NCBI GenBank assembly: GCA_964475855.1
Contig: CAYZAV010000002.1
Coordinates: forward strand, 51,933 to 115,932
From: an uncultured Candidatus Saccharibacteria bacterium
GTDB lineage: Bacteria > Patescibacteriota > Minisyncoccia > Minisyncoccales > Staskawiczbacteraceae
DNA: 64,000 nucleotides
Direction: 5' to 3'
The notes under the pieces were generated by a model. The model did no database searches, was not told the origin of the DNA, and saw only the letters and a program-made list of their open reading frames with translations. Made by a program: the position numbers and the translations under genes. This document shows positions 6,880-63,952 of the stretch, in pieces; position 1 is the stretch's first letter, and every line of letters begins with the position of its first letter.

Positions 6880-6883
6880 CTTC

Positions 6884-7060
6884 GCGCCAGCATCCGGGTA
6901 TGAATAGACGCGGTTAATTCCGCCAGCGCGGACCGGCAAAAAAAAGACTCTATCAAGAGTCTTTTTTTTGCCTATTACCGCTCACCTCTCGGCAATTTTC
7001 CCGCTTCGCGGGACCGTGCAAAATTGCCTCCGAGATGCATTCATACCCGGATGCTGTCGC
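6884..7060. repeat. 177-bp structured palindromic (MITE-like) element, copy 1
   Basis: Same length as 39341..39517, with 8 differences by my alignment. 22-nt terminal inverted repeats and an internal 17-bp A8/T8-flanked hairpin. Confidence 0.75.
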
Positions 7061-7070
7061 TATGCACCTC

Positions 7071-11245: not shown

Positions 11246-11282
11246 ATACTGGAAATTTCCAATTATCAATTTACAATTTACA

Positions 11283-11912
11283 ATGAAAACGATAGTTTAT
11301 AATCAAGAAGGAAAAGAGGCAGGTGAAGTCACGCTGCCAAAAGAAATATTCCAAGTTCAGATGAACGCTGATTTGGTGCACCAAGTGTTGATTTCTTATT
11401 CGGCCAACAAGCGGCAAGTTTCTGCTCACACTAAAAACCGCGGCGAAGTGCGTGGAGGAGGCCGCAAACCATGGAGGCAGAAAGGAACCGGACGTGCTAG
11501 GGCAGGTTCAACTCGCGGACCGATTTGGAAAGGTGGAGGAGTTTCCGGCGGCCCACGCAATGAAAAAGTATATGCACGTATTATCCCAGTCAAGATGCGT
11601 AAAAAAGCGTTGGCAATGGTATTGTCTGAAAAAGTAAAGAATAATTTATTCGTCATTGTGGATGGCTTGGACATGCAAACGGCAAAAACGAAGTCTATGG
11701 CAACCATGATTAAAAAGTTACCCGTTGCAAATGCCAGCAGATTGGTATTGTATACTACCGGAAAGAACGTATTTTTATCAGCCCGTAATATTGCCAAGAC
11801 AGGCGTAACTGAAATCCGTAATATGAATGTGGCTGATTTGCTCAATTACAAATATGTAGTTTTGAGCAAGGACGAAATTAAAGAAATTGAAAAAATGGTT
11901 AGCATTACATAA
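11283..11912 (+). CDS. rplD: 50S ribosomal protein L4
   Basis: RGGGRKPWRQKGTGRAR motif. Confidence 0.96.
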   Translation: MKTIVYNQEGKEAGEVTLPKEIFQVQMNADLVHQVLISYSANKRQVSAHTKNRGEVRGGGRKPWRQKGTGRARAGSTRGPIWKGGGVSGGPRNEKVYARIIPVKMRKKALAMVLSEKVKNNLFVIVDGLDMQTAKTKSMATMIKKLPVANASRLVLYTTGKNVFLSARNIAKTGVTEIRNMNVADLLNYKYVVLSKDEIKEIEKMVSIT

Positions 11913-11917
11913 GCAAT

Positions 11918-12385
11918 ATGGCATTACTTGATTTTTTAAAAAACAAAAAAGAGAAAGATAAGGCTAACGAAAAAAAAGCCGACCTTTTGGTTTCTAAAGA
12001 AACCAAAACGCAGACCGACGCAGATAAATCGCAGATTGGCGCAGATAAGATCAGCGATAATCAGCGTAACATCAGCGTAAATCAGCGATTTTTACCTGGT
12101 AAAAATGAGAAATTTTCTTATACTATAGTAAAAGAACCGCATATTTCTGAAAAGGGGACTATTTTGTCTGAAAAGAATAAATATGTGTTCCGGGTGTATG
12201 ATCGCGCCAATAAGCCTGAAATTAAAAAAGCGGTTGAAGGAATTTATGGCGTAAATGTATTGGCCGTAAATGTGGTACGTATTCCCAAGAAAAAACGAAA
12301 GCTTGGCAGGACGGAAGGTTTTAAAAAAGCCTACAGTAAAGCCATTGTAACTATTAAAGAGGGGCAAAAGATTGAGATATTCTAA
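11918..12385 (+). CDS. rplW: 50S ribosomal protein L23 with a ~60-aa repeat-containing N-terminal extension
   Basis: Core YVFRVYDRANKPEIKKAVEGIYGV. No internal Met lies before the core. Confidence 0.9.
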   Translation: MALLDFLKNKKEKDKANEKKADLLVSKETKTQTDADKSQIGADKISDNQRNISVNQRFLPGKNEKFSYTIVKEPHISEKGTILSEKNKYVFRVYDRANKPEIKKAVEGIYGVNVLAVNVVRIPKKKRKLGRTEGFKKAYSKAIVTIKEGQKIEIF

Positions 12386-15136: not shown

Positions 15137-15328
15137 ATGAAAACCGCAGAATTACGGAAAAAAAATACCAAAGAATTGGAAAAATCGGTGGTGGATCTCA
15201 AAAAAAAGTTGAGCGACATCCGGTTTAAGTTTTCCAGCAATCAGATGAAGAACGTGAAAGAATTGAGCAATATCAAAAAAGAAATTGCCCGCAGTTTGAC
15301 TATTATCAACGAATTTACGAATAAATAA
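15137..15328 (+). CDS. rpmC: 50S ribosomal protein L29
   Basis: 63 aa, position between rplP and rpsQ, ELRKKNTKELEK pattern. Confidence 0.9.
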   Translation: MKTAELRKKNTKELEKSVVDLKKKLSDIRFKFSSNQMKNVKELSNIKKEIARSLTIINEFTNK

Positions 15329-15397
15329 CGAATTTGCGAATTAAAGTGTAATTAACGAGTGTATTAGCAAATTCGTAACACATTCGTAAATTCGCTG
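15309..15397. repeat. Word-built inverted repeat (ttcgtaaa/cgaattt words) spanning the rpmC 3' end and spacer
   Basis: acgaatttacgaat...acgaatttgcgaat pairs with gcaaattcgt...attcgtaaattcg. Related to 42563..42660. Confidence 0.6.
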
Positions 15398-15407
15398 ATT
15401 AACTAAC

Positions 15408-17111: not shown

Positions 17112-17151
17112 CCATATATATTTCAATATTTAAATATTTAAATTTTTCGCA

Positions 17152-18149: not shown

Positions 18150-18491
18150 ATGTCATTTAAACAAGAAAAACGGAAAAGGATCCATGGAAGGATCAGGTCT
18201 CGCCTTATGGGAACTGCCATACGTCCGCGGCTTTCGGTATTCAAATCATCAAACCATATGTATGCCCAGCTGATTGATGATGATAGTGCAAAGGTACTGG
18301 TGATGGTTTCTGATATAAAAATGAAAAAAGGAAAAAAAACCGAACACTCCCTTGAAATTGGAAAATTGATTGCCAAAGAGGCATTGGCTAAAAAAATCGA
18401 AACGGTTGTTTTTGACCGTGGTGGTTTCGTATTCCATGGAAGGGTGAAGGCAGTAGCTGATGGTGCGCGCGAAGGCGGACTGAAGTTCTAA
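18150..18491 (+). CDS. rplR: 50S ribosomal protein L18
   Basis: RPRLSVFKSSNHMYAQLIDD...FDRGGFVFHGRVKA. Confidence 0.95.
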   Translation: MSFKQEKRKRIHGRIRSRLMGTAIRPRLSVFKSSNHMYAQLIDDDSAKVLVMVSDIKMKKGKKTEHSLEIGKLIAKEALAKKIETVVFDRGGFVFHGRVKAVADGAREGGLKF

Positions 18492-18529
18492 ATTTATAAT
18501 TATTCTAATTGACCTAATTATTCTAAAAA

Positions 18530-19506: not shown

Positions 19507-19567
19507 CACGTAACATAGAACAGATAACAAATACGTTTTGTTTTATGTTCCATGTTTCATGTTCCAT
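19499..19567. repeat. Word-built inverted repeat (aacat/atgtt heptamers) between rplO and secY
   Basis: cacataacacgtaacatagaacagataacaaa / ttttgttttatgttccatgtttcatgttccatg. Confidence 0.6.
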
Positions 19568-19572
19568 GAAGA

Positions 19573-24086: not shown

Positions 24087-24195
24087 ACTTTGATATGGAG
24101 TTTGGCAGGCGTGTAATGGGTTTATGGGAAAAAATATCGAAGAAAAAGATATTGTGGACTGGATTTAAAAATGTGGATAAAAATCTTGCAAAAAT

Positions 24196-24225
24196 AAAAA
24201 AGCGGAAAGGTTAGTTCTTTCCGCT
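24196..24225 (-). terminator. Terminator of the 4xHTH gene
   Basis: AGCGGAAAG/CTTTCCGCT stem with an A-run on the plus strand. Confidence 0.6.
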
Positions 24226-24273
24226 TGCGTGTGCCCGCGAAGGCGCTTTTTTCTCGCACCAGGATGGTGCTTT

Positions 24274-24957
24274 TTAAGGCTCAAAGATTTCCTCTCCGAA
24301 TTCTTCGCTGGTCTTGCTGACTAGTTGCTCGACACGTTGACGGCTGACACCTATTGCCTCGCCAATTTCTCGCAGGGTTTTACCCTTTTTGACCATCTTG
24401 ATGATGGTTTGCATCCGCCCACTTTCAAGATCTCTCCAAGTGGCAGACGTTCTTGAATCGAGCAGGTTTTCTTTGATAAGCTCGTGGGCATATAGGTCTA
24501 CTTTTCTTACTGAGACGCCAAGTAATGCTGCAATCTTGCCATTGGCAAGGCCTAGGTTCCGTAATAGTACCACGCGCTTTTTATAGCTTTGTCGTTGTTC
24601 TTTCGTAAAATGCTGCCTATGTGGCACAAGCCTTTTCTCTCTAATAAGCTGGGAGGCAATAACGATTACGATGCCAGAGGTAAGACCAAGCTTTTTGGCA
24701 ATGGCTTTATTGTCTAGGCCTTTGTTTCGTAGTCTGATAATCCCTTCTTCGCGCCGGATGTGTTCCTGTTCAGAAACAGTGAAGTTCCCCTTTTTCTGTT
24801 TTTTGACTTTTCCTTTCTTGATAAGCTGGTGGACCGTGTTTATTACTACGCAATACGGAAGCCCTGTTTTCTCTACAACCTCATTGTTACTGAAGCCTTG
24901 ACTGCGCAGTGCAATGATTTGCGATTCGCGGCGTTGCCGTTCTTGGTCGGATAGCAT
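24274..24957 (-). CDS. Protein built of four tandem ~57-aa sigma70-region-4/LuxR-like HTH modules
   Basis: Four internal repeats of the form R..II.LR..G.sn..IA..LG.s...V......LI..g. AAGGAG SD motif. G+C-rich. Confidence 0.65.
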   Translation of the reverse strand: MLSDQERQRRESQIIALRSQGFSNNEVVEKTGLPYCVVINTVHQLIKKGKVKKQKKGNFTVSEQEHIRREEGIIRLRNKGLDNKAIAKKLGLTSGIVIVIASQLIREKRLVPHRQHFTKEQRQSYKKRVVLLRNLGLANGKIAALLGVSVRKVDLYAHELIKENLLDSRTSATWRDLESGRMQTIIKMVKKGKTLREIGEAIGVSRQRVEQLVSKTSEEFGEEIFEP

Positions 24958-25004
24958 AACGATGCTCCTTATTTAGTTTTGTAGGTGCGGGTGATATGAG
25001 TATT

Positions 25005-25033
25005 GTTATATATCATTTTTATTGATATGTCAA
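25005..25033 (-). promoter_or_regulatory. Promoter of the 4xHTH gene
   Basis: Minus strand TTGACA(25033-25028)-17-TATAAC(25010-25005). Confidence 0.5.
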
Positions 25034-25089
25034 ATGGTGCGGATCGCTGTAATTTGCGGAAACCGTCAAGATTTAGTAGTATAAGGTAT

Positions 25090-26802
25090 ATGAAATCCGC
25101 AGAACTTCGCCAAAAATTCCTGGATTTTTTTGAGAAAAAGGGGCATACAATTGTCTCTAGCGCTTCTTTAATTCCTGCAGAAACGGGAGCTGGGCAAAAG
25201 ACATTATTTATTACGGCGGGAATGCAGCCTTTGATACCGTTTTTATTAGGGGAAACGCATCCCGGGGGCAAGAGAATTGTTAATATTCAAAAATGCTTCA
25301 GGACCATTGATATTGATGAAGTCGGCGATGATACACATAACACTTTTTTCCAAATGTTGGGAAATTGGTCGCTGGGGGACTATTGGAAAAAAGAATCTAT
25401 TTCCTGGAGTTTTGAATTTTTAACGAAAGAATTGAATATTCCAATAGAAAAATTGGCAGTTTCTTGTTTTATTGGTGATGAACATGCGCCAAAAGATAAA
25501 GAGTCCGCTGAAATCTGGGAAAGCTTGGGAGTTACGAAAGAAAGAATCGCTTTTTTGCCAAAAGAGGATAACTGGTGGGGTCCGGTTGGAGAAACCGGTC
25601 CGTGCGGCCCCGACACAGAGATTTTTTATTGGAAAGCAAATGATGTGCCCGTGCCAAAAGAATTTGATTCGACTAATAAAAATTGGGTTGAGATTTGGAA
25701 TAATGTTTTCATGCAATATGTTAAGGATACCAATGGCAACTATGTTTTGGCAGAACAAAAAAATGTAGATACGGGTATGGGCTTTGAAAGGACGCTGGCT
25801 ATTTTGAATGGTTTTGAAAATATATACGAAACAGATTTGTTTGCGCCGGTTATGCATTTATTCCCAGGTCATGTTGATGAACGTAAAAAACGGATTATCG
25901 CCGACCACGCCAGGGCATCGGTATTTTTAATTTCAGATGGGGTGATTCCTTCAAATAAAGACCAAGGATATATATTGCGAAGATTGTTAAGAAGAATGAT
26001 GGTACATATGCGAGGCATTGAGCACGATATCTTTGAGCCGATTAAGAAAAATATAGAAATATACCAAGAAATATATGCTTTAGATGAGGGTAAAATTATA
26101 CCGGTAGTTAAAGAAGAGGCCGAGAAATTTGAAAAAACATTGGCGGCAGGATTAAAAGTGATTGAAAAAATAACCACTATTACCGGCAAAGAAGCTTTTT
26201 TACTCTATGAAACATATGGTTTTCCATTGGAAGTTTTAGAAGAAATACGCGAAGTTGTAAATCGAGAAGATTTTTTTGAAGAGTTAAAAAAACACCAAGA
26301 ATTATCTCGCACTGCTTCTGTGGGAATGTTTAAAGGGGGACTGGCGGATCATGATCCAAAAACTATAACATTGCACACAGCGCACCATTTGCTGTTGGCG
26401 GCTTTGCAGCAACTGTTAGGGTCAGAAGTAAAGCAAAAAGGCAGTAATATTACGCAAGAACGGTTACGGATTGATGTTTCGCTTGGGCGGAAAATTACCA
26501 AAGAAGAATTATTGGAGGTGGAAAATTTGGTTAATGAAAAAATTTCTGGCGCTCTGGATGTGGTAAAAAAAGAAATGTCGCTTTCGGAGGCACAGCAAAT
26601 TGGTGCAGAAATGGAATTTGGTGTAAAATACGGTAATACGGTGTCAGTTTACTTTATAGAAGAAAAAGATGGCACGTCGTTTAGTAAAGAATTTTGCGGC
26701 GGCCCGCATGTAAAAAATACATCGGAAATAGGTAAGTTTAAGATAATAAAAGAAGAAGCTTCTTCGCAGGGGGTGAGGAGGATAAAAGCAATCTTAGAGT
26801 AA
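25090..26802 (+). CDS. alaS: Alanyl-tRNA synthetase, compact form (570 aa, no C-Ala domain)
   Basis: MKSAELRQKFLDFFEKKGH start. Editing motifs HTAHHLL and CGGPHV. Start set at ATG 25090 with TTGCGG-17-TAGTAT-7 nt upstream. Confidence 0.9.
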   Translation: MKSAELRQKFLDFFEKKGHTIVSSASLIPAETGAGQKTLFITAGMQPLIPFLLGETHPGGKRIVNIQKCFRTIDIDEVGDDTHNTFFQMLGNWSLGDYWKKESISWSFEFLTKELNIPIEKLAVSCFIGDEHAPKDKESAEIWESLGVTKERIAFLPKEDNWWGPVGETGPCGPDTEIFYWKANDVPVPKEFDSTNKNWVEIWNNVFMQYVKDTNGNYVLAEQKNVDTGMGFERTLAILNGFENIYETDLFAPVMHLFPGHVDERKKRIIADHARASVFLISDGVIPSNKDQGYILRRLLRRMMVHMRGIEHDIFEPIKKNIEIYQEIYALDEGKIIPVVKEEAEKFEKTLAAGLKVIEKITTITGKEAFLLYETYGFPLEVLEEIREVVNREDFFEELKKHQELSRTASVGMFKGGLADHDPKTITLHTAHHLLLAALQQLLGSEVKQKGSNITQERLRIDVSLGRKITKEELLEVENLVNEKISGALDVVKKEMSLSEAQQIGAEMEFGVKYGNTVSVYFIEEKDGTSFSKEFCGGPHVKNTSEIGKFKIIKEEASSQGVRRIKAILE

Positions 26803-26897
26803 ATTATTCTAATTATACTAATTGCTCTAATTATTCTAACTATTTGGGTATTGGCATTTGATTAGGTCAATTAGAATAATTAGGTTAATTAGAAATT
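26802..26897. repeat. Word-built inverted repeat (ttctaatt words)
   Basis: aattattctaattatactaattgctctaattattctaac pairs with attaggtcaattagaataattaggttaattagaaatt. Confidence 0.6.
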
Positions 26898-26905
26898 TCA
26901 CAAGT

Positions 26906-28237
26906 ATGGCTAAAAAAATCTACGATATCTTGCCGCCAAAATTGGCGAACAAAGTGGAGGGTGCGGTAAAAGAAATGGGTTTGGCTCCAAAGCCTAAACG
27001 GACGCGCGGCGCCAAGAAAGCAGTATCAACTGCCAAGGCTTCTGTTTTAGATAAATCTTCGGTGGTACGGGCCGGCGTGGTAAAGGGAAAAAAAATCCCG
27101 TTAAAAGAATTGCTTATTGGTGGCGGGGTGATTATCTGTTTGCTTGGAGTGTATTTATTCACCACCTTGCCTAGCGCCCAAATCCGCATATCACCCGCCA
27201 CAGAACAGCTGAAACTAGAAGCAAGAATAACCGCTGACACGGACCAAAAAACGGTTGATAGTGCCAAGAAAATAATCCCGGCGCGATATGTTGAAGAACA
27301 ACAAGGGGGGAGCCAGGAATTTCCCGCAACCGGCAGCGCCTCCAATGATGGCAAGGCAGCCGGAACTATCAGGGTTTATAATAAGGTCAGCCCGTCAACA
27401 CCCATCGTATTAAAAGAGGGTACCCACTTTTTATCGGATTCAGGGAAATATTTTGTGATATCAGACAGGATTACGGTGCCGGCTATGCAAGGAAAAACTG
27501 CCGGGTCGGTTAGTGTGAAGGTCCAAGCAGAGGAATCGGGTGATGCATATAATATTGGTGCTTCAAAATTTTCCGTTCCCAAATTATCGGGTACTACTTA
27601 TTATTATGGCATTTGGGCTGAGTCTACTTCTGCTATGGCGGGAGGCTATCTGGGCGATGTTAAAAAAGTAACCGCTGATGACCTTGATAATGCGCGCGAC
27701 GTGTTCACTAAAAAATTGTTAGCCGAGGCAGAAGTTTCCCTGAAAAGCAAATTAGGCAGCGACGAAATATTACTGGATGGCGCGTTTTCCAAGAACGTAG
27801 TTGAGGCCTCGGCCAGTGCCAAGGCAAATGCGGTTGCTGAAAAATTCACCCAAACGGCCAAGGTGAAAGTGACGGCGTTGGTGGTTAAAAGATCGGATTT
27901 AGAACAACTGGTAAAAGCTAATTTGGTTTCCAACTTGTCTGACGGGAAAACATATTTGCCGGAAAGTGTGAATGTTGCATATGGTATCGATTCAGTTGAT
28001 ATCCAGGGTGGCGTGGCAAAAATTACGATGAAATCTTCGGCTGCTACGTATTATGCCGTAAATGTCAATGACTTGCTTGACCGAGTTGCCAACAAACCGG
28101 CGGATGAAATCAAGAATGCGATAACTGCCAAATATGGCGAAAAAGTCTCGGCCACTACGGTTGAGTTCTGGCCATTTTGGGTCACCAAGGCGCCAAGTAA
28201 TAAGGATAAAATTACCATCGAGGTTGTTTTTCCGTAA
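26906..28237 (+). CDS. Hypothetical membrane-anchored extracytoplasmic protein
   Basis: Start at MAKKIYDILPP. TM LLIGGGVIICLLGVYLFTTL. No confident family assignment. Confidence 0.5.
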   Translation: MAKKIYDILPPKLANKVEGAVKEMGLAPKPKRTRGAKKAVSTAKASVLDKSSVVRAGVVKGKKIPLKELLIGGGVIICLLGVYLFTTLPSAQIRISPATEQLKLEARITADTDQKTVDSAKKIIPARYVEEQQGGSQEFPATGSASNDGKAAGTIRVYNKVSPSTPIVLKEGTHFLSDSGKYFVISDRITVPAMQGKTAGSVSVKVQAEESGDAYNIGASKFSVPKLSGTTYYYGIWAESTSAMAGGYLGDVKKVTADDLDNARDVFTKKLLAEAEVSLKSKLGSDEILLDGAFSKNVVEASASAKANAVAEKFTQTAKVKVTALVVKRSDLEQLVKANLVSNLSDGKTYLPESVNVAYGIDSVDIQGGVAKITMKSSAATYYAVNVNDLLDRVANKPADEIKNAITAKYGEKVSATTVEFWPFWVTKAPSNKDKITIEVVFP

Positions 28238-30119: not shown

Positions 30120-30180
30120 CATGGAGCACGTGATATGGAACAATTAACCTAAGGTTATGTTTCATGTTTCATGCTTCATG
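30120..30180. repeat. Word-built inverted repeat (catg/gtttcat words) between rpsD and rpoA
   Basis: catggagcacgtgatatggaacaattaacc-taa-ggttatgtttcatgtttcatgcttcatg. Confidence 0.6.
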
Positions 30181-30970: not shown

Positions 30971-30972
30971 AG

Positions 30973-31066
30973 AATAAGGTATCCCGCGGAAATCAGGCCG
31001 CAAGGTATACGATATAATTAAGACTGATTTCCGAGGTGAATTTACTCACTTCGTTCATAAATTCAA
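30973..31066 (+). repeat. Dispersed ~95-bp leader-proximal element, copy 2 (fills the rpoA stop to rplQ ATG gap)
   Basis: aataaggtatcccgcggaaatcaggccgcaaggtatacgatataattaagactgatttccgaggtgaatttactcacttcgttcataaattcaaATG. Confidence 0.75.
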
Positions 31067-34964: not shown

Positions 34965-35882
34965 TTACAGCTTTTCGAAGCCGTCGTTGGTGAGACAACT
35001 GTCTAGGAATGCGATTGCCATATTGCGGCCATCGGTGGCTTGCCTGCCTGCTTTGAAGCGGTTATGCGACCAGAACAAGGGCTTACCGTTTTCTTCTGCG
35101 CAGCAGGTACACCGGTCATTGACCAAGATGCGATTTTCGGGAATGCCGGCGATGCGCAGCATGAACTTGCACAGGGCATAAAGGTCCACGGTCAGATGTC
35201 CCTCGCCAAAGGGACTTTTAGCAGTAGTTTTCTGCAAACACATACGAAGGATAGCGCCGAGGCGGGTTTTTGACGGATCAGAGATTTCCGGCTTGTCGGC
35301 ATATTCGGGCAGCCAACAGCATGGGCCAATGCCATAGCCAATATAGGCGCGGGTTCGGGAAACATTGAAATGTTCCATGGCCGTCATGAGGATATTGGGT
35401 TCCTTGGAGTCTTCCCTGATCAGTGCGCGGTATCCGGCGTGGAGCACCGCCATTCTGTCTTCCTCAACCAAAGCGATGATCGGGCAGTCGGCGTTGAAAA
35501 AAGCAACAGCGTTTTTTTCGCCAAACACGATGCCGCCATCGGCCGGGCTTTTTGTCCGGGTCATGACAATCTCGGTTCTTTCCTCTTGCCCAATGACCAC
35601 GCTGTTATCATAGCAGGCGCCGTCAACCGGGTCATCCTTGGGATCTCCTGGGCCGTAGATGGGAGTCATCACCGTGCGGGCATGGACATCGTCGTCTTGG
35701 CCAAGATACACCACCCGGTTAGTAAAGGCGGGCTTGGGACAAAACAGGGTGTTGGGGCGCAAGGCCAGGAAATCCTGGCGCGCGTGAAACACTTTTTGCA
35801 TGAAATCTTCACGCGAAAGGTTAGTGGGGCTGCAGTTCCATTGCATGCCCACCAGAGACCGGTACAAACGCAAATCTGCCAT
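34965..35882 (-). CDS. YfiH/PgeF (DUF152, Cu-oxidase_4)-like protein, divergent paralog 1
   Basis: FFNADCPIIAL....AVLHAGYRA, GIGPCC, VDLY..C...L...GIPE..I....CTCC....FWSHNR...DGRNMAIAFL follow the YfiH motif order. GGAG SD motif. G+C-rich. Confidence 0.6.
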   Translation of the reverse strand: MADLRLYRSLVGMQWNCSPTNLSREDFMQKVFHARQDFLALRPNTLFCPKPAFTNRVVYLGQDDDVHARTVMTPIYGPGDPKDDPVDGACYDNSVVIGQEERTEIVMTRTKSPADGGIVFGEKNAVAFFNADCPIIALVEEDRMAVLHAGYRALIREDSKEPNILMTAMEHFNVSRTRAYIGYGIGPCCWLPEYADKPEISDPSKTRLGAILRMCLQKTTAKSPFGEGHLTVDLYALCKFMLRIAGIPENRILVNDRCTCCAEENGKPLFWSHNRFKAGRQATDGRNMAIAFLDSCLTNDGFEKL

Positions 35883-39321: not shown

Positions 39322-39340
39322 GATGTTGTTTGTTCGATCC

Positions 39341-39517
39341 GCGACAGCATTCGGGTATGAATAGACGCGGTTAATTCCGCCAGCGCGGACCGGTAAAAAA
39401 AAGACTCTGCGAAGAGTCTTTTTTTTACCTATTACCGCTCACCTCTCGGCAATTTTCCCGCTTCGCGGGACCGTGCAAAATTGCCTCCGAGATGCATTCA
39501 TACCCGAATGCTGTCGC
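39341..39517. repeat. 177-bp structured palindromic (MITE-like) element, copy 2
   Basis: Perfect 22-nt terminal inverted repeats gcgacagcattcgggtatgaat / attcatacccgaatgctgtcgc. Same orientation as copy 1. Confidence 0.75.
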
Positions 39518-39523
39518 TACACG

Positions 39524-39936: not shown

Positions 39937-40719
39937 ATGAACCAGTTGGAATTTTTGAAGAAAATGTGGGATGGTGGGCAATTGGCTCATGCTTATATTT
40001 TTTCGGGGGCTGACATGGTGGGGTTGAAAAAAGCGGCCAATGAATTGCTCGGACATGCCGGCTGTAAATTTCCGGATGTGATTACACTTTCCAGTGCGCA
40101 AAGCGACAGTTCCATTAAAAATGAAAAGGATATGATGGAAATCGATATTGATCAGATTCGTCGTGTCCAGCAATTTTTATCATATAAATCATATAACGGG
40201 GGACTGAAAGCCGTGGTGGTTGAACATGCAGAACGGATGAACGTCGAAGCCCAAAACTGTTTTTTGAAAAATTTGGAAGAACCAAAGGGCCAGACATTGA
40301 TCATGTTATTATGCGACAAGCCTGAATATTTATTGCCCACCATTGCCTCACGCTGTCAGACAATCCGGTTTTCCGCAAAAAGCGAAGCGCAAGAAGCAGT
40401 ATTGCCCCAAGTTTTGCAAAATGTAATTAATGGGGACTTGGCTGAAAAATTCAAGTTTGCCAAAACAGCCAACCTGGAGGGAGAAAATTTCGAGAATATG
40501 TTAGCGGGTCTACAGCGACATTTTCGGAATTTACTTCTGGATAAAATCCAGGGAGAGACTAATCTACCTGCCTCGCCGGCAGGCGGGCGAATTACATCCG
40601 AATATACGAATGAAAAGATGGTATCGGTACTGCGGCAGATTGAAACATTGCAGCACCAGGCGGCAACCACCAATCTTAATAACAAACTGGCATTGGAAAT
40701 ATTATTACTTGAGTTATAA
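39937..40719 (+). CDS. holB: DNA polymerase III delta' subunit
   Basis: LAHAYIFSG..., NCFLKNLEEP, LPTIASRCQ motifs. Start at MNQLEFL. Confidence 0.8.
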   Translation: MNQLEFLKKMWDGGQLAHAYIFSGADMVGLKKAANELLGHAGCKFPDVITLSSAQSDSSIKNEKDMMEIDIDQIRRVQQFLSYKSYNGGLKAVVVEHAERMNVEAQNCFLKNLEEPKGQTLIMLLCDKPEYLLPTIASRCQTIRFSAKSEAQEAVLPQVLQNVINGDLAEKFKFAKTANLEGENFENMLAGLQRHFRNLLLDKIQGETNLPASPAGGRITSEYTNEKMVSVLRQIETLQHQAATTNLNNKLALEILLLEL

Positions 40720-40791
40720 AGTTCATAAAGTTATAAAGTTCATAAAGATACGAAGAACTTTAAAAACTTTACGAACTTTCAAACTTTATAA
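40715..40791. repeat. Word-built inverted repeat (aaagtt 9-mers)
   Basis: ttataaagttcataaagttataaagttcataaag pairs with actttaaaaactttacgaactttcaaactttataa. Paired aaagtt cores are separated by 3-nt mismatches. Confidence 0.6.
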
Positions 40792-41359: not shown

Positions 41360-41429
41360 AAAATTTACAATATACAATACACAATATACAAACAAATTTT
41401 GTAAATTGTAGATTGTGTATTGTATATTT
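41360..41429. repeat. Word-built inverted repeat (tacaata heptamers)
   Basis: tacaatacacaat (41372-41384) pairs perfectly with attgtgtattgta (41412-41424). Confidence 0.6.
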
Positions 41430-41433
41430 AGTA

Positions 41434-42561
41434 ATGATAATTACTTTGTTGATTGCATTTTTAAGTCTTATTGCCCTCATGATCATCCATGAATTCGGGC
41501 ATTTTATCATTGCTAAAAAATTCGGGGTGAAGGTGGAGGAATTCGGCATTGGATATCCGCCGCGGCTTTTTGGCAAGCAATTTGGCGATACGCTGTATTC
41601 CATAAATTTGGTGCCACTTGGCGCGTTTGTGAAAATTTATGGAGAAGAGGGCGAGGTAGTTTCTGACGTTGATAATTACCGTAGTTTTTCGGGACTTGCC
41701 ATTTACAAGCGTATGTTGATTGTCCTTGGCGGGGTGATTGCGTTTTGGATTGCCAGCATTATTATTTTTTCAGTAATGTTTTTGACCGGCGCCACAATGC
41801 CTGTTGGTGACCAGGATGTGGCCGGATTCACCGATATCACCATCACTATTTCTGAAGTGGCGGAAAATTCCCCAGCTCACGATTCGGGACTCAAAGAGGG
41901 TGATAAGATAGTCAGTGTCCAAGTTGGCCAAGTACGCACGGATATCAAAAAAGTGGCAGATTTTCAGAAAATCGTGCAAGAGAATAAAAGTAAACAAATA
42001 ATCGTAGCCGTTGTGCGTCAAGGGGAAGAACTTTATATTCCATTAATCCCGCGAGTTGAATATCCCGAAGGTCAGGGGCCGACAGGGGTGGTGTTGGAGC
42101 GTCTTGACACTATTATCCAAAAAGCCCCCTGGTATGAAGCTCCGTTCCGTGGAGCCGCGTATTGCTGGAAGGTGACCGTTGATATCACCTATGGCATATT
42201 TTCTTTTTTTGCCAATATCTTCCGGGGACAGGGTGTTCCTTCGGGCGCTGAATTCGCCGGGCCGGTGGGGATTACCATTTTCCTGGCACGCGCAGCAAGT
42301 TACGGAGCAGGATTTTTCCTTTACTTTATCGGGTCTATTTCTGTGCTTTTGGCTATCTTTAATTTACTGCCCATCCCGGCGCTAGACGGGGGGAAGTTAC
42401 TATTTTTAATCATTGAAAAGGTGAAGGGGTCGGCCGTTTCAGTAAAAATAGAGGGTTGGCTGACTATTTTCTTTTTTATTCTATTGATTTCCATGTCGCT
42501 ATTTATTACCATAAAATTTGATTTCCCGCGAGTAATGGAATTTTGGAAAGCAGGGTTGTAA
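41434..42561 (+). CDS. rseP: RIP metalloprotease RseP (M50 with PDZ domain)
   Basis: HEFGHF zinc motif, PDZ-like AENSPAHDSGLKEGDKIVSV, LPIPALDGG. Confidence 0.88.
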   Translation: MIITLLIAFLSLIALMIIHEFGHFIIAKKFGVKVEEFGIGYPPRLFGKQFGDTLYSINLVPLGAFVKIYGEEGEVVSDVDNYRSFSGLAIYKRMLIVLGGVIAFWIASIIIFSVMFLTGATMPVGDQDVAGFTDITITISEVAENSPAHDSGLKEGDKIVSVQVGQVRTDIKKVADFQKIVQENKSKQIIVAVVRQGEELYIPLIPRVEYPEGQGPTGVVLERLDTIIQKAPWYEAPFRGAAYCWKVTVDITYGIFSFFANIFRGQGVPSGAEFAGPVGITIFLARAASYGAGFFLYFIGSISVLLAIFNLLPIPALDGGKLLFLIIEKVKGSAVSVKIEGWLTIFFFILLISMSLFITIKFDFPRVMEFWKAGL

Positions 42562-42562
42562 T

Positions 42563-42660
42563 CAGCGAATTTGCTAATATATTACGAATTTACGAATGTG
42601 GCGAACGAGCGATCACGTAAAGTGTATTCGTAAATTCGTAACTAATTCGTAAATTCGTTG
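42563..42660. repeat. Word-built inverted repeat (ttcgtaaa words), related to 15309..15397
   Basis: cagcgaatttgctaatatattacgaatttacgaatg pairs with tattcgtaaattcgtaactaattcgtaaattcgttg. Confidence 0.6.
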
Positions 42661-42668
42661 ATGATACT

Positions 42669-45071: not shown

Positions 45072-45356
45072 ATGATTTCAAAAGAAGACGTACAGCATAT
45101 TGCCAAGTTGGCGCGATTGGAACTGGGTCAGCAAGAAGCGATAAAAATGCAGCAGGATATGTCGGCGATTTTAGATTATTTTGATTTGTTGAAAAAAGCG
45201 CCAAAAGTTACAAAGGTTACAAAAGTGACAAAGGTAAAAAATAATGGATTGCGCGACGATAAGGTGGGGCAACAAAATAGTGCTTTGGCGGGAGAACTAA
45301 TCAATGCCGCGCCGGATAAAAAGGATGGATATGTCAAAGTTAAGGCAATACTATAA
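45072..45356 (+). CDS. gatC: Glu/Asp-tRNA amidotransferase subunit C (contains a KVTKVTKVTKV repeat)
   Basis: 94 aa, VQHIAKLARLEL...ILDYFD..., precedes gatA. Confidence 0.88.
   Translation: MISKEDVQHIAKLARLELGQQEAIKMQQDMSAILDYFDLLKKAPKVTKVTKVTKVKNNGLRDDKVGQQNSALAGELINAAPDKKDGYVKVKAIL
45207..45233 (+). repeat. Three tandem in-frame 9-bp units (same family) inside gatC
   Basis: gttacaaag gttacaaaa gtgacaaag, translated (K)VTKVTKVTK. Confidence 0.8.
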
Positions 45357-47466: not shown

Positions 47467-47574
47467 TTACCTTAGAAATCCAACGCCCACCGAAAATGCC
47501 ACCATGCTGATTGCCACTAGGCTGATGAGGGCTACCCAAACGCCTTTAAGTATCTTTTTTTGGTTAAATTTCAT
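47467..47574 (-). CDS. Possible 35-aa small membrane protein
   Basis: My translation: MKFNQKKILKGVWVALISLVAISMVAFSVGVGFLR. Its ATG abuts the dispersed element exactly as at rpmB and rplQ. Confidence 0.3.
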   Translation of the reverse strand: MKFNQKKILKGVWVALISLVAISMVAFSVGVGFLR

Positions 47575-47745
47575 GAATTTATGAACGAAGTGAATAAATT
47601 CACCTCGGAAATCAGGCTTAATTATATCGTATACCTTGCGGCCTGATTTCCGCTGGATACCTTATTCGGAAATCAGGCTTAATTATATCGTATACCTTGC
47701 GGCCTGATTTACGCGGGATACCTTATTTTCTCGCAGGATACCTTT
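47575..47745 (-). repeat. Dispersed leader-proximal element, copy 3, with a tandem 61-bp duplication
   Basis: Units 47606-47666 and 47667-47727 differ at 2 positions. A partial third ggatacctttatt box follows. Confidence 0.75.
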
Positions 47746-51673: not shown

Positions 51674-51752
51674 GTGACAAAAGTAGCAAAGGAAGCAGAA
51701 GATACAAAGGCCTTTGAGCCATCTGTATCCTTTGTTACGTTTGAAACTTTTT
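51674..51752. repeat. Hairpin built from GTKRCAAAG-type 9-mers
   Basis: gtgacaaaa gtagcaaag gaagcagaa gatacaaag pairs with cctttgagccatctgtatcctttgttacgtttgaaac. Confidence 0.55.
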
Positions 51753-58582: not shown

Positions 58583-58608
58583 AGCAACCCATCAGGATTT
58601 CGCGGCAA

Positions 58609-58637
58609 TTGACGTGTCTCTTAATATGTTATATAAT
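58609..58637 (+). promoter_or_regulatory. Near-consensus promoter of the 286-aa G+C-rich gene
   Basis: TTGACG(58609-58614)-17-TATAAT(58632-58637). Confidence 0.6.
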
Positions 58638-58729
58638 AGAGCTATTAAACTAAGGTGTTTAATCCCAGTGGTGAGGCTTTCGCCATATGCACTTTGATAC
58701 CAGTACAACTGGTAGAAAGGATGATGACG

Positions 58730-59590
58730 ATGTCCAAGACATTGATCACGTCTCGTGAGGCAAAGGGTCTCGAGATCGCCAACTTCTTTGATGTCGTTTT
58801 GAATGAGGCCGGGCTCGACCAAGAGCGGGGCCAGCGCCTCATTGAGAACGGCGGCGAGTTCCAGGAAGGCCTCAAGGACCTCATCAAGAGGTTTTCGGTC
58901 ACGAATCAGTTCGCCAACGAGGAAGTGGCTTCCGGCTATGGTTATCTCTCGGGTTACAAGCCCAAGAGCGTCGCCAGGCAGGTCAAAATCCTCAATGGGC
59001 TGTTCCCGAATTTGGGTTCTGCCAACAAGAGACTGTTTGGCAAACCGCTTCCCGAAAACGCCGAAGGATTGTTCGCAATCCCGCGGTGGGAGTGCTTTTC
59101 CACAACCTACAACGAGGCAGTGGTAAGGGTACTCGACCAGATCAAGCTGATCTGTGGTGGCAAGTTCTACAACTACCGCGAAAACCAGCTCGGTCCAAAG
59201 TTTCTCCGCCAGCACGCCAAAACCGTCAAGGCATTCAGTATGCTGGGCGAACAGCAGACGGGCTACGAGATTCTCGTGGTTGCCTGTCAGTTCGGCCTTC
59301 GGCACCGTGGACGCAGTGTCCGCCGGGCCCGCGAAGTCATGAACTCTTTGGAGTTCGGTCTCGGCGCTTTCGCCAACGGCTGCATGATTCTGACCCACCC
59401 GGAACGCCTCCAGTACTACGACGATCTTTGGATCGATTGTGCCGGTGATGAGTTTTCCGATGGCGGTGTTGGTTCCTTCGGCCACGCTCCGTGCTTCAGG
59501 TTCTATGGCGGCAAGGTCCTCTTCGACTCGAGGCCTCTCGGCGCTGCCTTCGGCAACTGTGGTTCGTCGTCTGGTCTGCTCTCGCAGTAA
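58730..59590 (+). CDS. Hypothetical protein, strongly G+C-rich cassette (286 aa from ATG 58730; GTG 58655 is an alternative)
   Basis: GAAAGGatgatgacgATG. Conserved-looking blocks GLFAIPRWE, QFGLRHRGRSVRRAREVM, ILTHPERLQYYDDLWIDCAGDEF. No family recognised. Confidence 0.6.
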   Translation: MSKTLITSREAKGLEIANFFDVVLNEAGLDQERGQRLIENGGEFQEGLKDLIKRFSVTNQFANEEVASGYGYLSGYKPKSVARQVKILNGLFPNLGSANKRLFGKPLPENAEGLFAIPRWECFSTTYNEAVVRVLDQIKLICGGKFYNYRENQLGPKFLRQHAKTVKAFSMLGEQQTGYEILVVACQFGLRHRGRSVRRAREVMNSLEFGLGAFANGCMILTHPERLQYYDDLWIDCAGDEFSDGGVGSFGHAPCFRFYGGKVLFDSRPLGAAFGNCGSSSGLLSQ

Positions 59591-62440: not shown

Positions 62441-63952
62441 ATGGCAAAGCCCAAGAAAAAAAAGAAACTAGTGCTTGCACGAAAAAAACCGGTAAAAAAA
62501 CCGAAAAAAGTTTTAGTAAAGAAAAAACCGATTACCAAGAGAATAAAAGCCAAGACCTTCCGCGGAGTTTCGCGTAAAATTCAGATTGATTCCGCGCCGG
62601 TAGCAGCCTTTCCGGCGGAGGCATTTTTCAAGGCGAAAATAAAAGTAATTGGCATTGGCGGGGGAGGTGGGTCTATTGTTTCCGAAATTGGCAGGTCTTT
62701 GAACAAGGCCACATTTGTGGTGGCGGATACTGATGAACGCGCGTTTAAAAAACGCCAGGGCATCAAACAGTTTTTATTCGGCCAGGAATTGACACATGGT
62801 TTGGGTACCGGATTAAACACCGACTTGGCACAGCGGGCCGCTGAAAGTGAAAAAGAAAATATCGCTAAATTATTTGACGGCCAGGATATTGTTATTTTTA
62901 TCGCCTGTTTGGGCGGAGGATTAGGAAGTGGTGCCACCCAAATATTCGCCGAGGCGGCCAAAGATTTCGGGGGAATTACCTTTGGTATTTTTACGCTGCC
63001 ATTTAAATTTGAAGGCAAAAACAAGCAAAAAATCGCAGCCAAGGCGTTGCGGGAACTACGTAAATCACTTAATGTTTCCATTACTATTCCCAACGAGCGT
63101 ATTTTTAAAATCATCCAGGAAAACACGGCCATTACTGATGCGTTCAGTACGGTTAACCGCAGCCTGATAGAATCGTTGGAAAGTTTGATAGATTTGATTT
63201 ACAATCCCGGTGTCATTAATATTGACTTCGCCGATCTGCGCGCTATTTTAAAGGGACGGGGGAATTTGGCGTTTTTAAATACGGCCGAGGCTTCCGGGGC
63301 TAATAGGGCGGATACCATCATTCATGAAATTTTGCATAACCCCCTATACCAAAGTAATAATTTTTCCGCCGAAAAAGTGCTATTTAACATTGCGAGCGGG
63401 GGAAATTTAAGCATGTTTGAGGTGGATAAAATAAGCCGGGTCATTTCTGAACATAACCAGTCCGCCAAGATTATTTTCGGGATTTCCAAAGACAATTCTC
63501 TGAAAAATAAAATCAAGACGACGCTGCTCATGACGGGGGCACCGCTTGGGGTGGAGCCCGATGCTACAAAGGTTACAAAGGTTGCAAAGGTGGCAGAGGT
63601 CGCAAAGGCTCCGGAAGCTACAAAGGTGACAAAGGCTACAAAAGTGGCAAAGACCACAAAGGTGGCAAAGGTGGTCTCGCCTTCGCCTAAGGCTTCGGCG
63701 AAACAAAGAAAGAAAAAAGTGGTGCCGGCGTCAAAAACCCCACCGCTTCAAAATGTTCCCGTTTTTTCCAATGTGTACGAGCCGGCCGAAAATTCGCGTA
63801 AATTGAGCATTGTTGAGCCACCACAGAAAAAAGCCATCAGGCGCACAGCATTGGAAGTGAAAAAAGCCGAAGAAATACAAGAACAAAGGCAATCCGATCA
63901 GGAAAAAGAGTGGGAAATTCCAGCATTTTTAAGAAAAATAAAGATCAAATAA
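62441..63952 (+). CDS. ftsZ: Cell division protein FtsZ with a ~60-aa Lys-rich N-terminal extension and a repeat-built C-terminal linker
   Basis: GIGGGGGS, ACLGGGLGSGA tubulin-signature region. C-terminal peptide EWEIPAFLRK. Confidence 0.9.
   Translation: MAKPKKKKKLVLARKKPVKKPKKVLVKKKPITKRIKAKTFRGVSRKIQIDSAPVAAFPAEAFFKAKIKVIGIGGGGGSIVSEIGRSLNKATFVVADTDERAFKKRQGIKQFLFGQELTHGLGTGLNTDLAQRAAESEKENIAKLFDGQDIVIFIACLGGGLGSGATQIFAEAAKDFGGITFGIFTLPFKFEGKNKQKIAAKALRELRKSLNVSITIPNERIFKIIQENTAITDAFSTVNRSLIESLESLIDLIYNPGVINIDFADLRAILKGRGNLAFLNTAEASGANRADTIIHEILHNPLYQSNNFSAEKVLFNIASGGNLSMFEVDKISRVISEHNQSAKIIFGISKDNSLKNKIKTTLLMTGAPLGVEPDATKVTKVAKVAEVAKAPEATKVTKATKVAKTTKVAKVVSPSPKASAKQRKKKVVPASKTPPLQNVPVFSNVYEPAENSRKLSIVEPPQKKAIRRTALEVKKAEEIQEQRQSDQEKEWEIPAFLRKIKIK
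63563..63670 (+). repeat. Twelve tandem in-frame 9-bp units (GTKRCAAAG family) inside ftsZ
   Basis: gctacaaag gttacaaag gttgcaaag gtggcagag gtcgcaaag gctccggaa gctacaaag gtgacaaag gctacaaaa gtggcaaag accacaaag gtggcaaag. Confidence 0.85.

Follow-up and report, generated by a model that had tools for sequence, protein, structure and literature searches.

Proteins that read DNA through several tandem helix-turn-helix (HTH) units are rare in prokaryotes, and the only characterized natural cases that surfaced in our searches, Cbp1 and Cbp2, are both archaeal (Sulfolobales and Desulfurococcales). Both are small, basic proteins that consist solely of tandem imperfect three-helix HTHs with basic linkers between them, three HTHs in Cbp1 and two in Cbp2. 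In Cbp2 of Hyperthermus butylicus (2LVS), the basic linker between the two HTHs has been implicated in high-affinity binding, and it is shielded from trypsin when the protein sits on DNA (PMC3597662). The three units of Cbp1 align 5′ to 3′ along the 25-bp repeat of clustered regularly interspaced short palindromic repeat (CRISPR) loci (PMC10883916). Here we describe a 227-amino-acid (aa) protein encoded in a 64-kb stretch of a 404-kb metagenomic contig; this whole stretch is called the window below. The protein is made of four HTH modules, three that resemble LuxR and Cbp units and a fourth that resembles region 4.2 of sigma-70. On balance, we favor reading it as a stand-alone basic DNA binder, a shortened ortholog within a wider protein family, that as a monomer would read an extended site of ~40-50 bp. 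Tandem-HTH DNA binders are already known; what is new is this architecture, within a family that has no name. The gene (hereafter the HTH gene) and its modules lie as follows, with positions counted along the window.

24274..24957, minus strand: HTH gene, coding sequence for 227 aa including the stop codon, from the open reading frame (ORF) call
24793..24951, minus strand: HTH module 1 (aa 3-55), a LuxR/Cbp-like repeat with helices at aa 4-19, 24-31, and 35-47 and the linker KGKVKKQKKG behind them
24616..24777, minus strand: HTH module 2 (aa 61-114), a LuxR/Cbp-like repeat with helices at aa 63-78, 83-90, and 94-106
24448..24609, minus strand: HTH module 3 (aa 117-170), the repeat that diverges most, with helices at aa 119-134, 139-146, and 150-162
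24277..24447, minus strand: module 4 (aa 171-227), sigma-70 region 4.2-like, with helices at aa 180-190, 195-202, and 206-220

The reading frame opens at the earliest possible start codon, and the protein is strongly basic (pI 10.2; 45 lysines and arginines versus 26 aspartates and glutamates), as are its first two linkers (KGKVKKQKKG and EKRLVPHRQH). Module 4 has the family-specific flanks TWRDL ... FGEEIFEP and the recognition-helix motif SRQRVEQ.

The original prediction, made from the sequence alone, had proposed four tandem HTH repeats, listed as segments that map to aa 6-51, 63-110, 119-166, and 178-220. We found that repeats 1-3 are mutually similar, with local alignment scores of 57-79 versus shuffle means of 20-23 (z 8.5-14.6; 0 of 500 shuffles reached these scores). 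The internal repeats are thus statistically supported for these three; segment 4 aligns only weakly with segments 1-3 in pairwise comparison (z 1.2-3.0) and is related to them at the profile level. Specifically, we built one profile from 53 repeat units of the family (A4) and another from 39 fourth modules (A5), and these aligned in hhalign with a probability of 96.8% (E = 2.4 × 10−10, 41 columns). Because the two profiles align, module 4 is an HTH homologous to repeats 1-3, yet of a distinct subtype. The proposed four repeats therefore hold as four HTH modules but not as four equal ones, since the profiles separate three LuxR/Cbp-like units from one sigma 4.2-like unit.

Structure prediction gave a helix-turn-helix for each of the four units. 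AlphaFold2 with a 27-sequence family alignment returned four three-helix units with short linkers at a mean predicted local distance difference test (pLDDT) of 93.5, with all four modules above 90, and the four three-helix units were already present in the single-sequence model. The predicted template modeling score of 0.57 is as expected of units that behave as independent beads. Searches of Pfam placed three HTH families above their thresholds: HTH_23 (PF13384; 49.7 bits versus a gathering cutoff of 24.6, E = 2.8 × 10−13) over four stretches, GerE (PF00196; 36.5 bits versus 23.5, E = 3.8 × 10−9) over three stretches that correspond to repeats 1-3, and, marginally, Sigma70_r4 (PF04545; 25.0 bits versus 24.1) on module 4 (aa 181-215). 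Sigma70_r4_2 also matched three stretches (E = 7.4 × 10−9). The likeness to LuxR and to sigma region 4 that had been proposed is thus confirmed, and so is the proposed lack of a receiver domain and of sigma region 2. No receiver, autoinducer-binding, or other non-HTH domain was found in the 227 aa with Pfam and NCBIfam, and no Sigma70_r2 match was found with Pfam; TIGR02937 scored 27.4 bits versus 42.9 and matched at the C-terminal end of the model only. All NCBIfam matches were sub-threshold, namely PedR, the IS630 N-terminus, the extracytoplasmic function sigma C-terminus, NarL, Cbp1, and Tfx. It is very likely that the HTH protein binds DNA.

We then compared the two module types with solved structures. 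For the repeat profile, the top match was a designed "CAP repeat", followed by both HTHs of Cbp2 (2LVS, E = 1.8 × 10−9), and after these by NarL, VpsT, VraR, DosR, and the PAI subdomain of Sleeping Beauty. The module 4 profile matched SigA/RpoD region 4.2 in many structures (E about 3 × 10−7), and its stretch "ratlkeIGeaLgvTrERarqlikk" aligned with region 4.2 of Bacillus subtilis SigA. Foldseek with the whole chain had no match at E ≤ 0.001, which is to be expected of domains on flexible linkers; its sub-threshold list held Cbp2 (probability 0.99), the bipartite domains of Tc3, Mos1, SETMAR, and Pax6, NarL, and sigma factors. NarL was the best single-domain structural match of module 2, with a root-mean-square deviation of 1.7 Å over 43 columns at 35% identity.

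Among known systems, Cbp1 and Cbp2 are the closest in build. The repeat profile matches both units of Cbp2, including the recognition-helix tail "L..G+I..R+", and given the shared architecture and the profile and fold matches, we adopted Cbp1 as the working model. The window protein differs from Cbp1 in that it is bacterial, has four units of which one is sigma-4-like, and scores only 21.4 bits versus the cutoff of 140 for NF040595; its wider family also adds C-terminal domains that Cbp1 and Cbp2 lack. We saw no CRISPR-like array in the 64-kb window. The C-terminal domains of LuxR/GerE proteins (NarL, VraR, VpsT, and DosR) are similar to repeats 1-3, which score above the GerE threshold, and NarL superposes on module 2 as given above. 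In contrast to these proteins, the units of the window protein have three helices each and lack the fourth, dimerization helix, because the Pfam GerE matches stop short (profile positions 5-31 of 57, and 42 at most in close relatives) and the model has three helices per unit. The window protein also lacks a receiver or ligand-binding domain, and its units are covalently repeated rather than dimerizing.

The resemblance to sigma-70 region 4.2 (1KU3, 4G8X, and 7CKQ chain F) lies in module 4 and its profile, and the family consensus TRERARQ equals the sigma motif. Unlike sigma-70, the window protein has no regions 2 and 3, has SRQRVEQ at the motif, and has flanks (TWRDL ... HG.E.F.P) that are not sigma features. 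A sigma factor must have region 2 in order to bind core and recognize the −10 element; as both this region and region 3 are absent, the protein is not one. Finally, the bipartite domains of Tc1/mariner/IS630 transposases and Pax proteins likewise place at least two three-helix HTHs and a basic linker on an extended site, and Tc3 (1U78), Mos1, SETMAR, the Sleeping Beauty PAI, and Pax6 are in the fold or profile lists. The window protein differs from IS630 and Tc1/mariner transposases in having no DDE/DDD domain and no transposon ends, and NF033545 reaches 30.4 bits versus 100, with only its HTH positions 2-37 covered.

A word-indexed homology search returned the query alone and, with the family alignment, four proteins and a single generic name, "CsgD family transcriptional regulator". 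Only an exhaustive HMMER search exposed the family, with 277 proteins at E ≤ 1 × 10−3 and 51 at E ≤ 1 × 10−10. We counted as family members those proteins within the best 150 matches in which the 61-aa module 4 matched at E < 1 × 10−6 over at least 45 positions. The fourth module and its flanks were present in 43 of these 150, so the HTH gene is not an isolated oddity but belongs to an unnamed family. The module 4 consensus of the family is W.DL...R.QTII.M.K.RATL.EIG..LG.TRERARQLI..I...HG...F, and the window protein carries the flank pattern W-R-D-L ... H/F-G-x-E-x-F-x-P. The whole architecture is covered by no Pfam, NCBIfam, or PHROG model, source names are generic only, and we found nothing on the family in the literature.

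Family members have one to three repeats upstream of module 4, and the window protein has three, the maximum among the 43 members. Behind module 4, 35 of the 43 carry a C-terminal region of 183-212 aa with a weak HTH_17 or excisionase-like match, a Cys4 zinc-ribbon motif, and a second conserved HTH-like block. This region has no counterpart in the window protein, which therefore is a C-terminally shortened member of the family. Other short forms exist (P0023, 228 aa; P0086, 188 aa). We looked for a tail remnant or a split gene by performing tblastn with seven of the C-terminal regions and found no match in the window, and the three frames past the stop codon of the HTH gene held nothing recognizable.

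Unit 2 of the window protein and unit 2 of its full-length ortholog P0012 are reciprocal best matches (score 144), and the best counterpart of unit 1 is unit 1 of P0012. Since each pairs with the unit of the ortholog rather than with the other, units 1 and 2 are old and have been kept distinct. Unit 3 is an additional, divergent unit, for which the two repeats of P0012 offer no counterpart. Recent internal duplications in P0005 and P0011 indicate that unit number is evolutionarily dynamic.

Larger relatives were also recovered. Five giant proteins (P0006, P0008, P0009, P0010, and P0013; 1260-1444 aa) have a sigma-70-like core in their first ~500 residues and six to seven copies of the LuxR/Cbp-like repeat unit behind it; sigma regions 2 and 3 were detected in P0006, while P0008 and P0009 showed regions 2 and 4. 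By sequence, the giants resemble sigma factors whose C-terminus is extended by a run of HTH units. Three other relatives (P0002, P0003, and P0015) are purely poly-HTH, with 7-10 units.

The HTH gene lies antisense within a ribosomal-protein gene block. The order is L16-L29-S17-L14-L24-L5-S8-L6-L18-S5-L15-SecY-Adk-Map-115aa-TpiA-RNaseH_like ahead of it along the window and AlaS-459aa-InfA-S13-S11-S4-RpoA-L17-L13-S9 past it. L30 is absent between S5 and L15, the alanyl-tRNA synthetase (AlaRS) has only 570 aa, and DUF5671/DUF5656 are among the neighbors of relatives, all of which fits a small-genome bacterium like those of the candidate phyla radiation (CPR) as the source. The sampled contexts of the family likewise come mostly from small-genome, CPR-like bacteria. 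The signals around the HTH gene and its neighbor alaS are these.

25005..25033, minus strand: sigma-70-type promoter-like site TTGACA-17-TATAAC of the HTH gene, from a pattern match
24965..24970, minus strand: Shine-Dalgarno sequence AAGGAG of the HTH gene, 7 nt ahead of the ATG
24190..24226, minus strand: intrinsic terminator for the HTH gene, made of a 10-bp stem AAGCGGAAAG / CTTTCCGCTT and a T-run behind it
24231..24275, plus strand: two terminator-like hairpins (24231-24246 and 24256-24270), each with a T-run, from a consensus scan only
25090-26802, plus strand: alaS, encoding the 570-aa AlaRS, in which only the catalytic and second additional domains were detected
25054..25082, plus strand: candidate alaS promoter TTGCGG-17-TAGTAT, divergent from the HTH gene, from a pattern match only

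The proposed AAGGAG, TTGACA-17-TATAAC, and terminator were thus all located; a consensus promoter scan misses the promoter-like site because it accepts only T as the sixth base of the second hexamer. The two plus-strand hairpins would stop an incoming tpiA-RNaseH_like transcript and so interrupt the ribosomal gene block. With its own promoter, Shine-Dalgarno sequence, and terminator, and with these opposing hairpins, the HTH gene is a monocistronic unit in a gap of the surrounding block. The HTH-gene and candidate alaS promoters stand back to back in an intergenic region of 132 bp. Because the alaS promoter-like site stops 7 nt ahead of the ATG at 25090, the alaS mRNA may be leaderless. Rfam searches over the window found tRNAs only, with no leader, riboswitch, or T-box near the HTH gene or upstream of alaS. 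The proposal that the gene is a G+C-rich cassette did not hold. The gene has 45.6% GC (0.47 at third codon positions) versus 42.7% for the window, which is within the spread of the neighboring genes, many of them equal or higher; the sole reason that it appears GC-rich is the adjacent alaS, at 38% GC.

The position next to alaS recurs in two other genomes. In the related locus L007, P0012 (377 aa, full length) has the same position, divergent from alaS, with SecY 84%, AlaRS 52%, and the neighboring 459-aa protein 50% identical. P0014 (455 aa) lies between alaS and a homolog of the 459-aa protein, upstream of S13-S11-S4 and on the same strand as those genes. Sites equivalent to the HTH-gene promoter, TTGACA-17-TATTAT and TTGACA-17-TATGAT, stand upstream of the orthologs in L007 and L027. 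The terminator core TTCCGCTTTTTT has a single exact occurrence in the window and is common to the 3′ ends of the L007 and L027 orthologs. In all three genomes, then, the alaS-linked HTH gene has its own TTGACA-17-TAnnAn promoter and a terminator with this core, which argues for orthology of the three genes. That in two other genomes related genes likewise sit at this position beside alaS argues for vertical inheritance. The retention of the orthologous terminator core after the new stop codon suggests that the tail was lost internally and the terminator kept.

A near-identical 20-mer, CTAACCTT(T)CCGCTTTTTTA, is shared between the HTH-gene terminator (24196-24215) and L027 (about 1975-1995). 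For a non-coding 3′ end, such conservation is unusually high, given that the AlaRS proteins of the three genomes are only about 50% identical. The most constant neighbor of the alaS-linked HTH genes is the 459-aa protein after alaS (26858-28237, plus strand), which is predicted to be membrane-anchored, has weak domain matches only (GlxA and Baseplate_J), and is 50% identical in L007 and 22-24% in L027.

In the mechanism that we favor, the four HTH units would form "beads on a string", three LuxR/Cbp-like units and then the sigma-70 region 4.2-like one. The monomer would stretch out on the DNA, one recognition helix in each of four consecutive major grooves and the linkers following the backbone or the minor groove, and would thereby read an asymmetric site of roughly 40-50 bp, much as Cbp1 does and similar also to the bipartite paired and Tc3 domains. 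We consider this monomeric, extended-site mode likely, given four independent HTHs, short linkers of which the first two are basic, a high pI, and units that have been kept distinct. Also in favor of this reading, the combination of sigma-4 and this repeat unit recurs in promoter-reading proteins, as the giant relatives carry the unit behind complete sigma-70-like cores. The output would likely be transcriptional or architectural regulation. More speculatively, the first targets could be the two divergent promoters of the 132-bp intergenic region (24958-25089), that of the HTH gene itself and that of alaS.

Several results weigh against this mechanism. Among operator repeats in the divergent intergenic region, none was significant, and a pair of CCGCACC words 52 bp apart was at chance level. 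No footprint conserved between the orthologous intergenic loci was found, and no DNA target was identified. The link to alaS is present in only 3 of the 9 sampled family contexts, with an orientation that varies among the three; the other six comprise two glycosyltransferase clusters, loci with PfkB kinases, with pyrG/EF-G, and with assorted housekeeping genes, and a contig too short for neighbors to be seen, none of them phage-like or mobile-element-like. The window protein has no residue beyond the FEP motif and so is without the ~200-aa tail of 35 of the 43 members, and it may work differently or less well for that reason. Finally, protein and DNA are identical on six contigs from several samples, which leaves no variation from which to gauge purifying selection.

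The regulators of small-genome, CPR-like bacteria are almost wholly uncharacterized. The variable unit number of this family, its recent duplications, its sigma-4-like module, and its recurrent position next to alaS within the ribosomal-protein block make it a tractable entry point, and the HTH protein itself is small, confidently predicted, and would be easy to express for binding assays. The questions that it opens are how core genes are regulated in such bacteria and how covalently linked HTH units share a long DNA site.

Among the alternatives, the best placed, though unlikely, is that the protein is a sigma region 4 mimic or decoy. Module 4 would sit on the beta-flap tip of RNA polymerase or on −35 hexamers while the repeats anchor it to nearby DNA, and the outcome would be a promoter-selective repressor or a sigma-appropriation factor. 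The match of the module 4 profile to SigA/RpoD region 4.2 points this way, as does the family motif [TS]RER[AV]RQ, which is exact in 17 of the 43 members and equals TRERIRQ of B. subtilis SigA. Residues of TRERxRQ are tied to −35 contacts in Escherichia coli sigma-70. A degenerate motif search of reference genomes pulled out ordinary sigma-factor fragments from unrelated phyla, the giant relatives join a true sigma core to the same repeat unit, and TTGACA stands at all three alaS-linked genes and at many promoters. The window protein itself is less sigma-like, however. Its SRQRVEQ departs from the motif at 2 of 7 positions, one of them an Arg-to-Glu change seen in only 3 of the 43 members, its Sigma70_r4 score is the marginal one given above, and sigma regions 2 and 3 are absent.

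We give slim credence to a broader proposal, that the family is a hitherto unrecognized class of promoter-reading factors in which a free-standing sigma 4.2-like domain is coupled to LuxR/Cbp-like readers arranged as a programmable array. If the proposal were true, such factors could act at chosen promoters in competition with sigma region 4, in its place, or as an extension of it, the giants would be the fused version and the four-module protein of the window the minimal one, and bacteria with small genomes and few regulators would have a modular means of promoter addressing.

There is a similarly slim chance that the gene is a decaying remnant, its C-terminal half deleted and the rest drifting to loss without function. 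The ~200-aa tail of 35 of 43 relatives is gone with no trace in the window, module 3 and the recognition helix of module 4 are the most divergent parts, and the six copies with identical DNA hold no variation with which to test selection. But the ORF is unbroken and has a strong promoter, a Shine-Dalgarno sequence, and a terminator, all four modules are predicted to fold (pLDDT > 90), the orthologous terminator is kept right behind the new stop codon, and P0023 and P0086 are short forms too.

The original prediction had also proposed that a poly-HTH protein could bind arrays of repeated DNA words in this genome. Binding to the short tandem "word" arrays, with one HTH per word, we regard as less probable still. 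The arrays are located as follows.

11254-11284, 12050-12087, 17118-17147, 18486-18526, 19545-19568, 26802-26844, 30157-30180, 40712-40788, 41362-41391, 45202-45232: word arrays with a period of 7-10 nt and 3.4-4.8 copies
15301-15401, 42559-42666: further word arrays

There are 12 arrays in the window, one of them directly behind alaS (26802-26844, AATTATTCT × 4.8) and another in the gap between L18 and S5, and their ~4 copies are near the number of modules. The sequence of the word differs by site, however, so no single sequence-specific reader fits all of them, and periods of 7-9 bp would sit poorly with the ~10.5 bp per groove of side-by-side HTHs. The comparison with relatives gave no support either: L007, the closest relative (SecY 84%), has no arrays in the syntenic 12 kb despite its ortholog, nor were any found at three other family loci.

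The arrays have features of their own. Nearly all fall between genes of the ribosomal block, with a different word at each site. The array at 18497-18526 has an inverted copy at 26861-26894, and arrays of the AATTCGTAA type occur in inverted pairs. A 9-nt periodic repeat of CAAAGGTNA-like words, with up to 12 copies, spans 63558-63672 inside the ORF at 62441-63952, and shorter copies of this word series are present at 45193-45244 and 51678-51711.

An origin in a mobile element or phage, either as a domesticated transposase DNA-binding domain or as a phage or defense regulator inserted antisense in the ribosomal block, is very improbable: a weak match to the IS630 transposase N-terminus (30.4 bits versus 100), a match to phrog_3855 "HTH DNA binding protein" (2 × 10−23), the bipartite transposase HTH domains among the fold matches, and the orientation antisense to the neighbors would suit it, but the catalytic domain is absent, no inverted repeats, integrase, or phage genes were found nearby, the GC content is ordinary, the same position is filled in two other genomes, viral contigs yielded no relatives, and the matches to defense models are not meaningful.

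Elsewhere in the window, the true G+C outliers are ORFs at 34965-35882 and 58592-59590, with 53-56% GC versus 42.7%. Long ORFs overlap on both strands at these two places, which may be foreign or unusual genes. A dispersed repeat of ~94 nt occurs at three loci with 82-97% identity (2685-2778; 30972-31065, inverted; and 47574-47727, where a 61-nt unit is present twice in tandem). A pair of 180-nt repeats with 96% identity (6883-7062 and 39340-39519) has internal inverted repeats and terminator-like hairpins. The 94-nt and 180-nt repeats may be small non-coding or miniature mobile elements.

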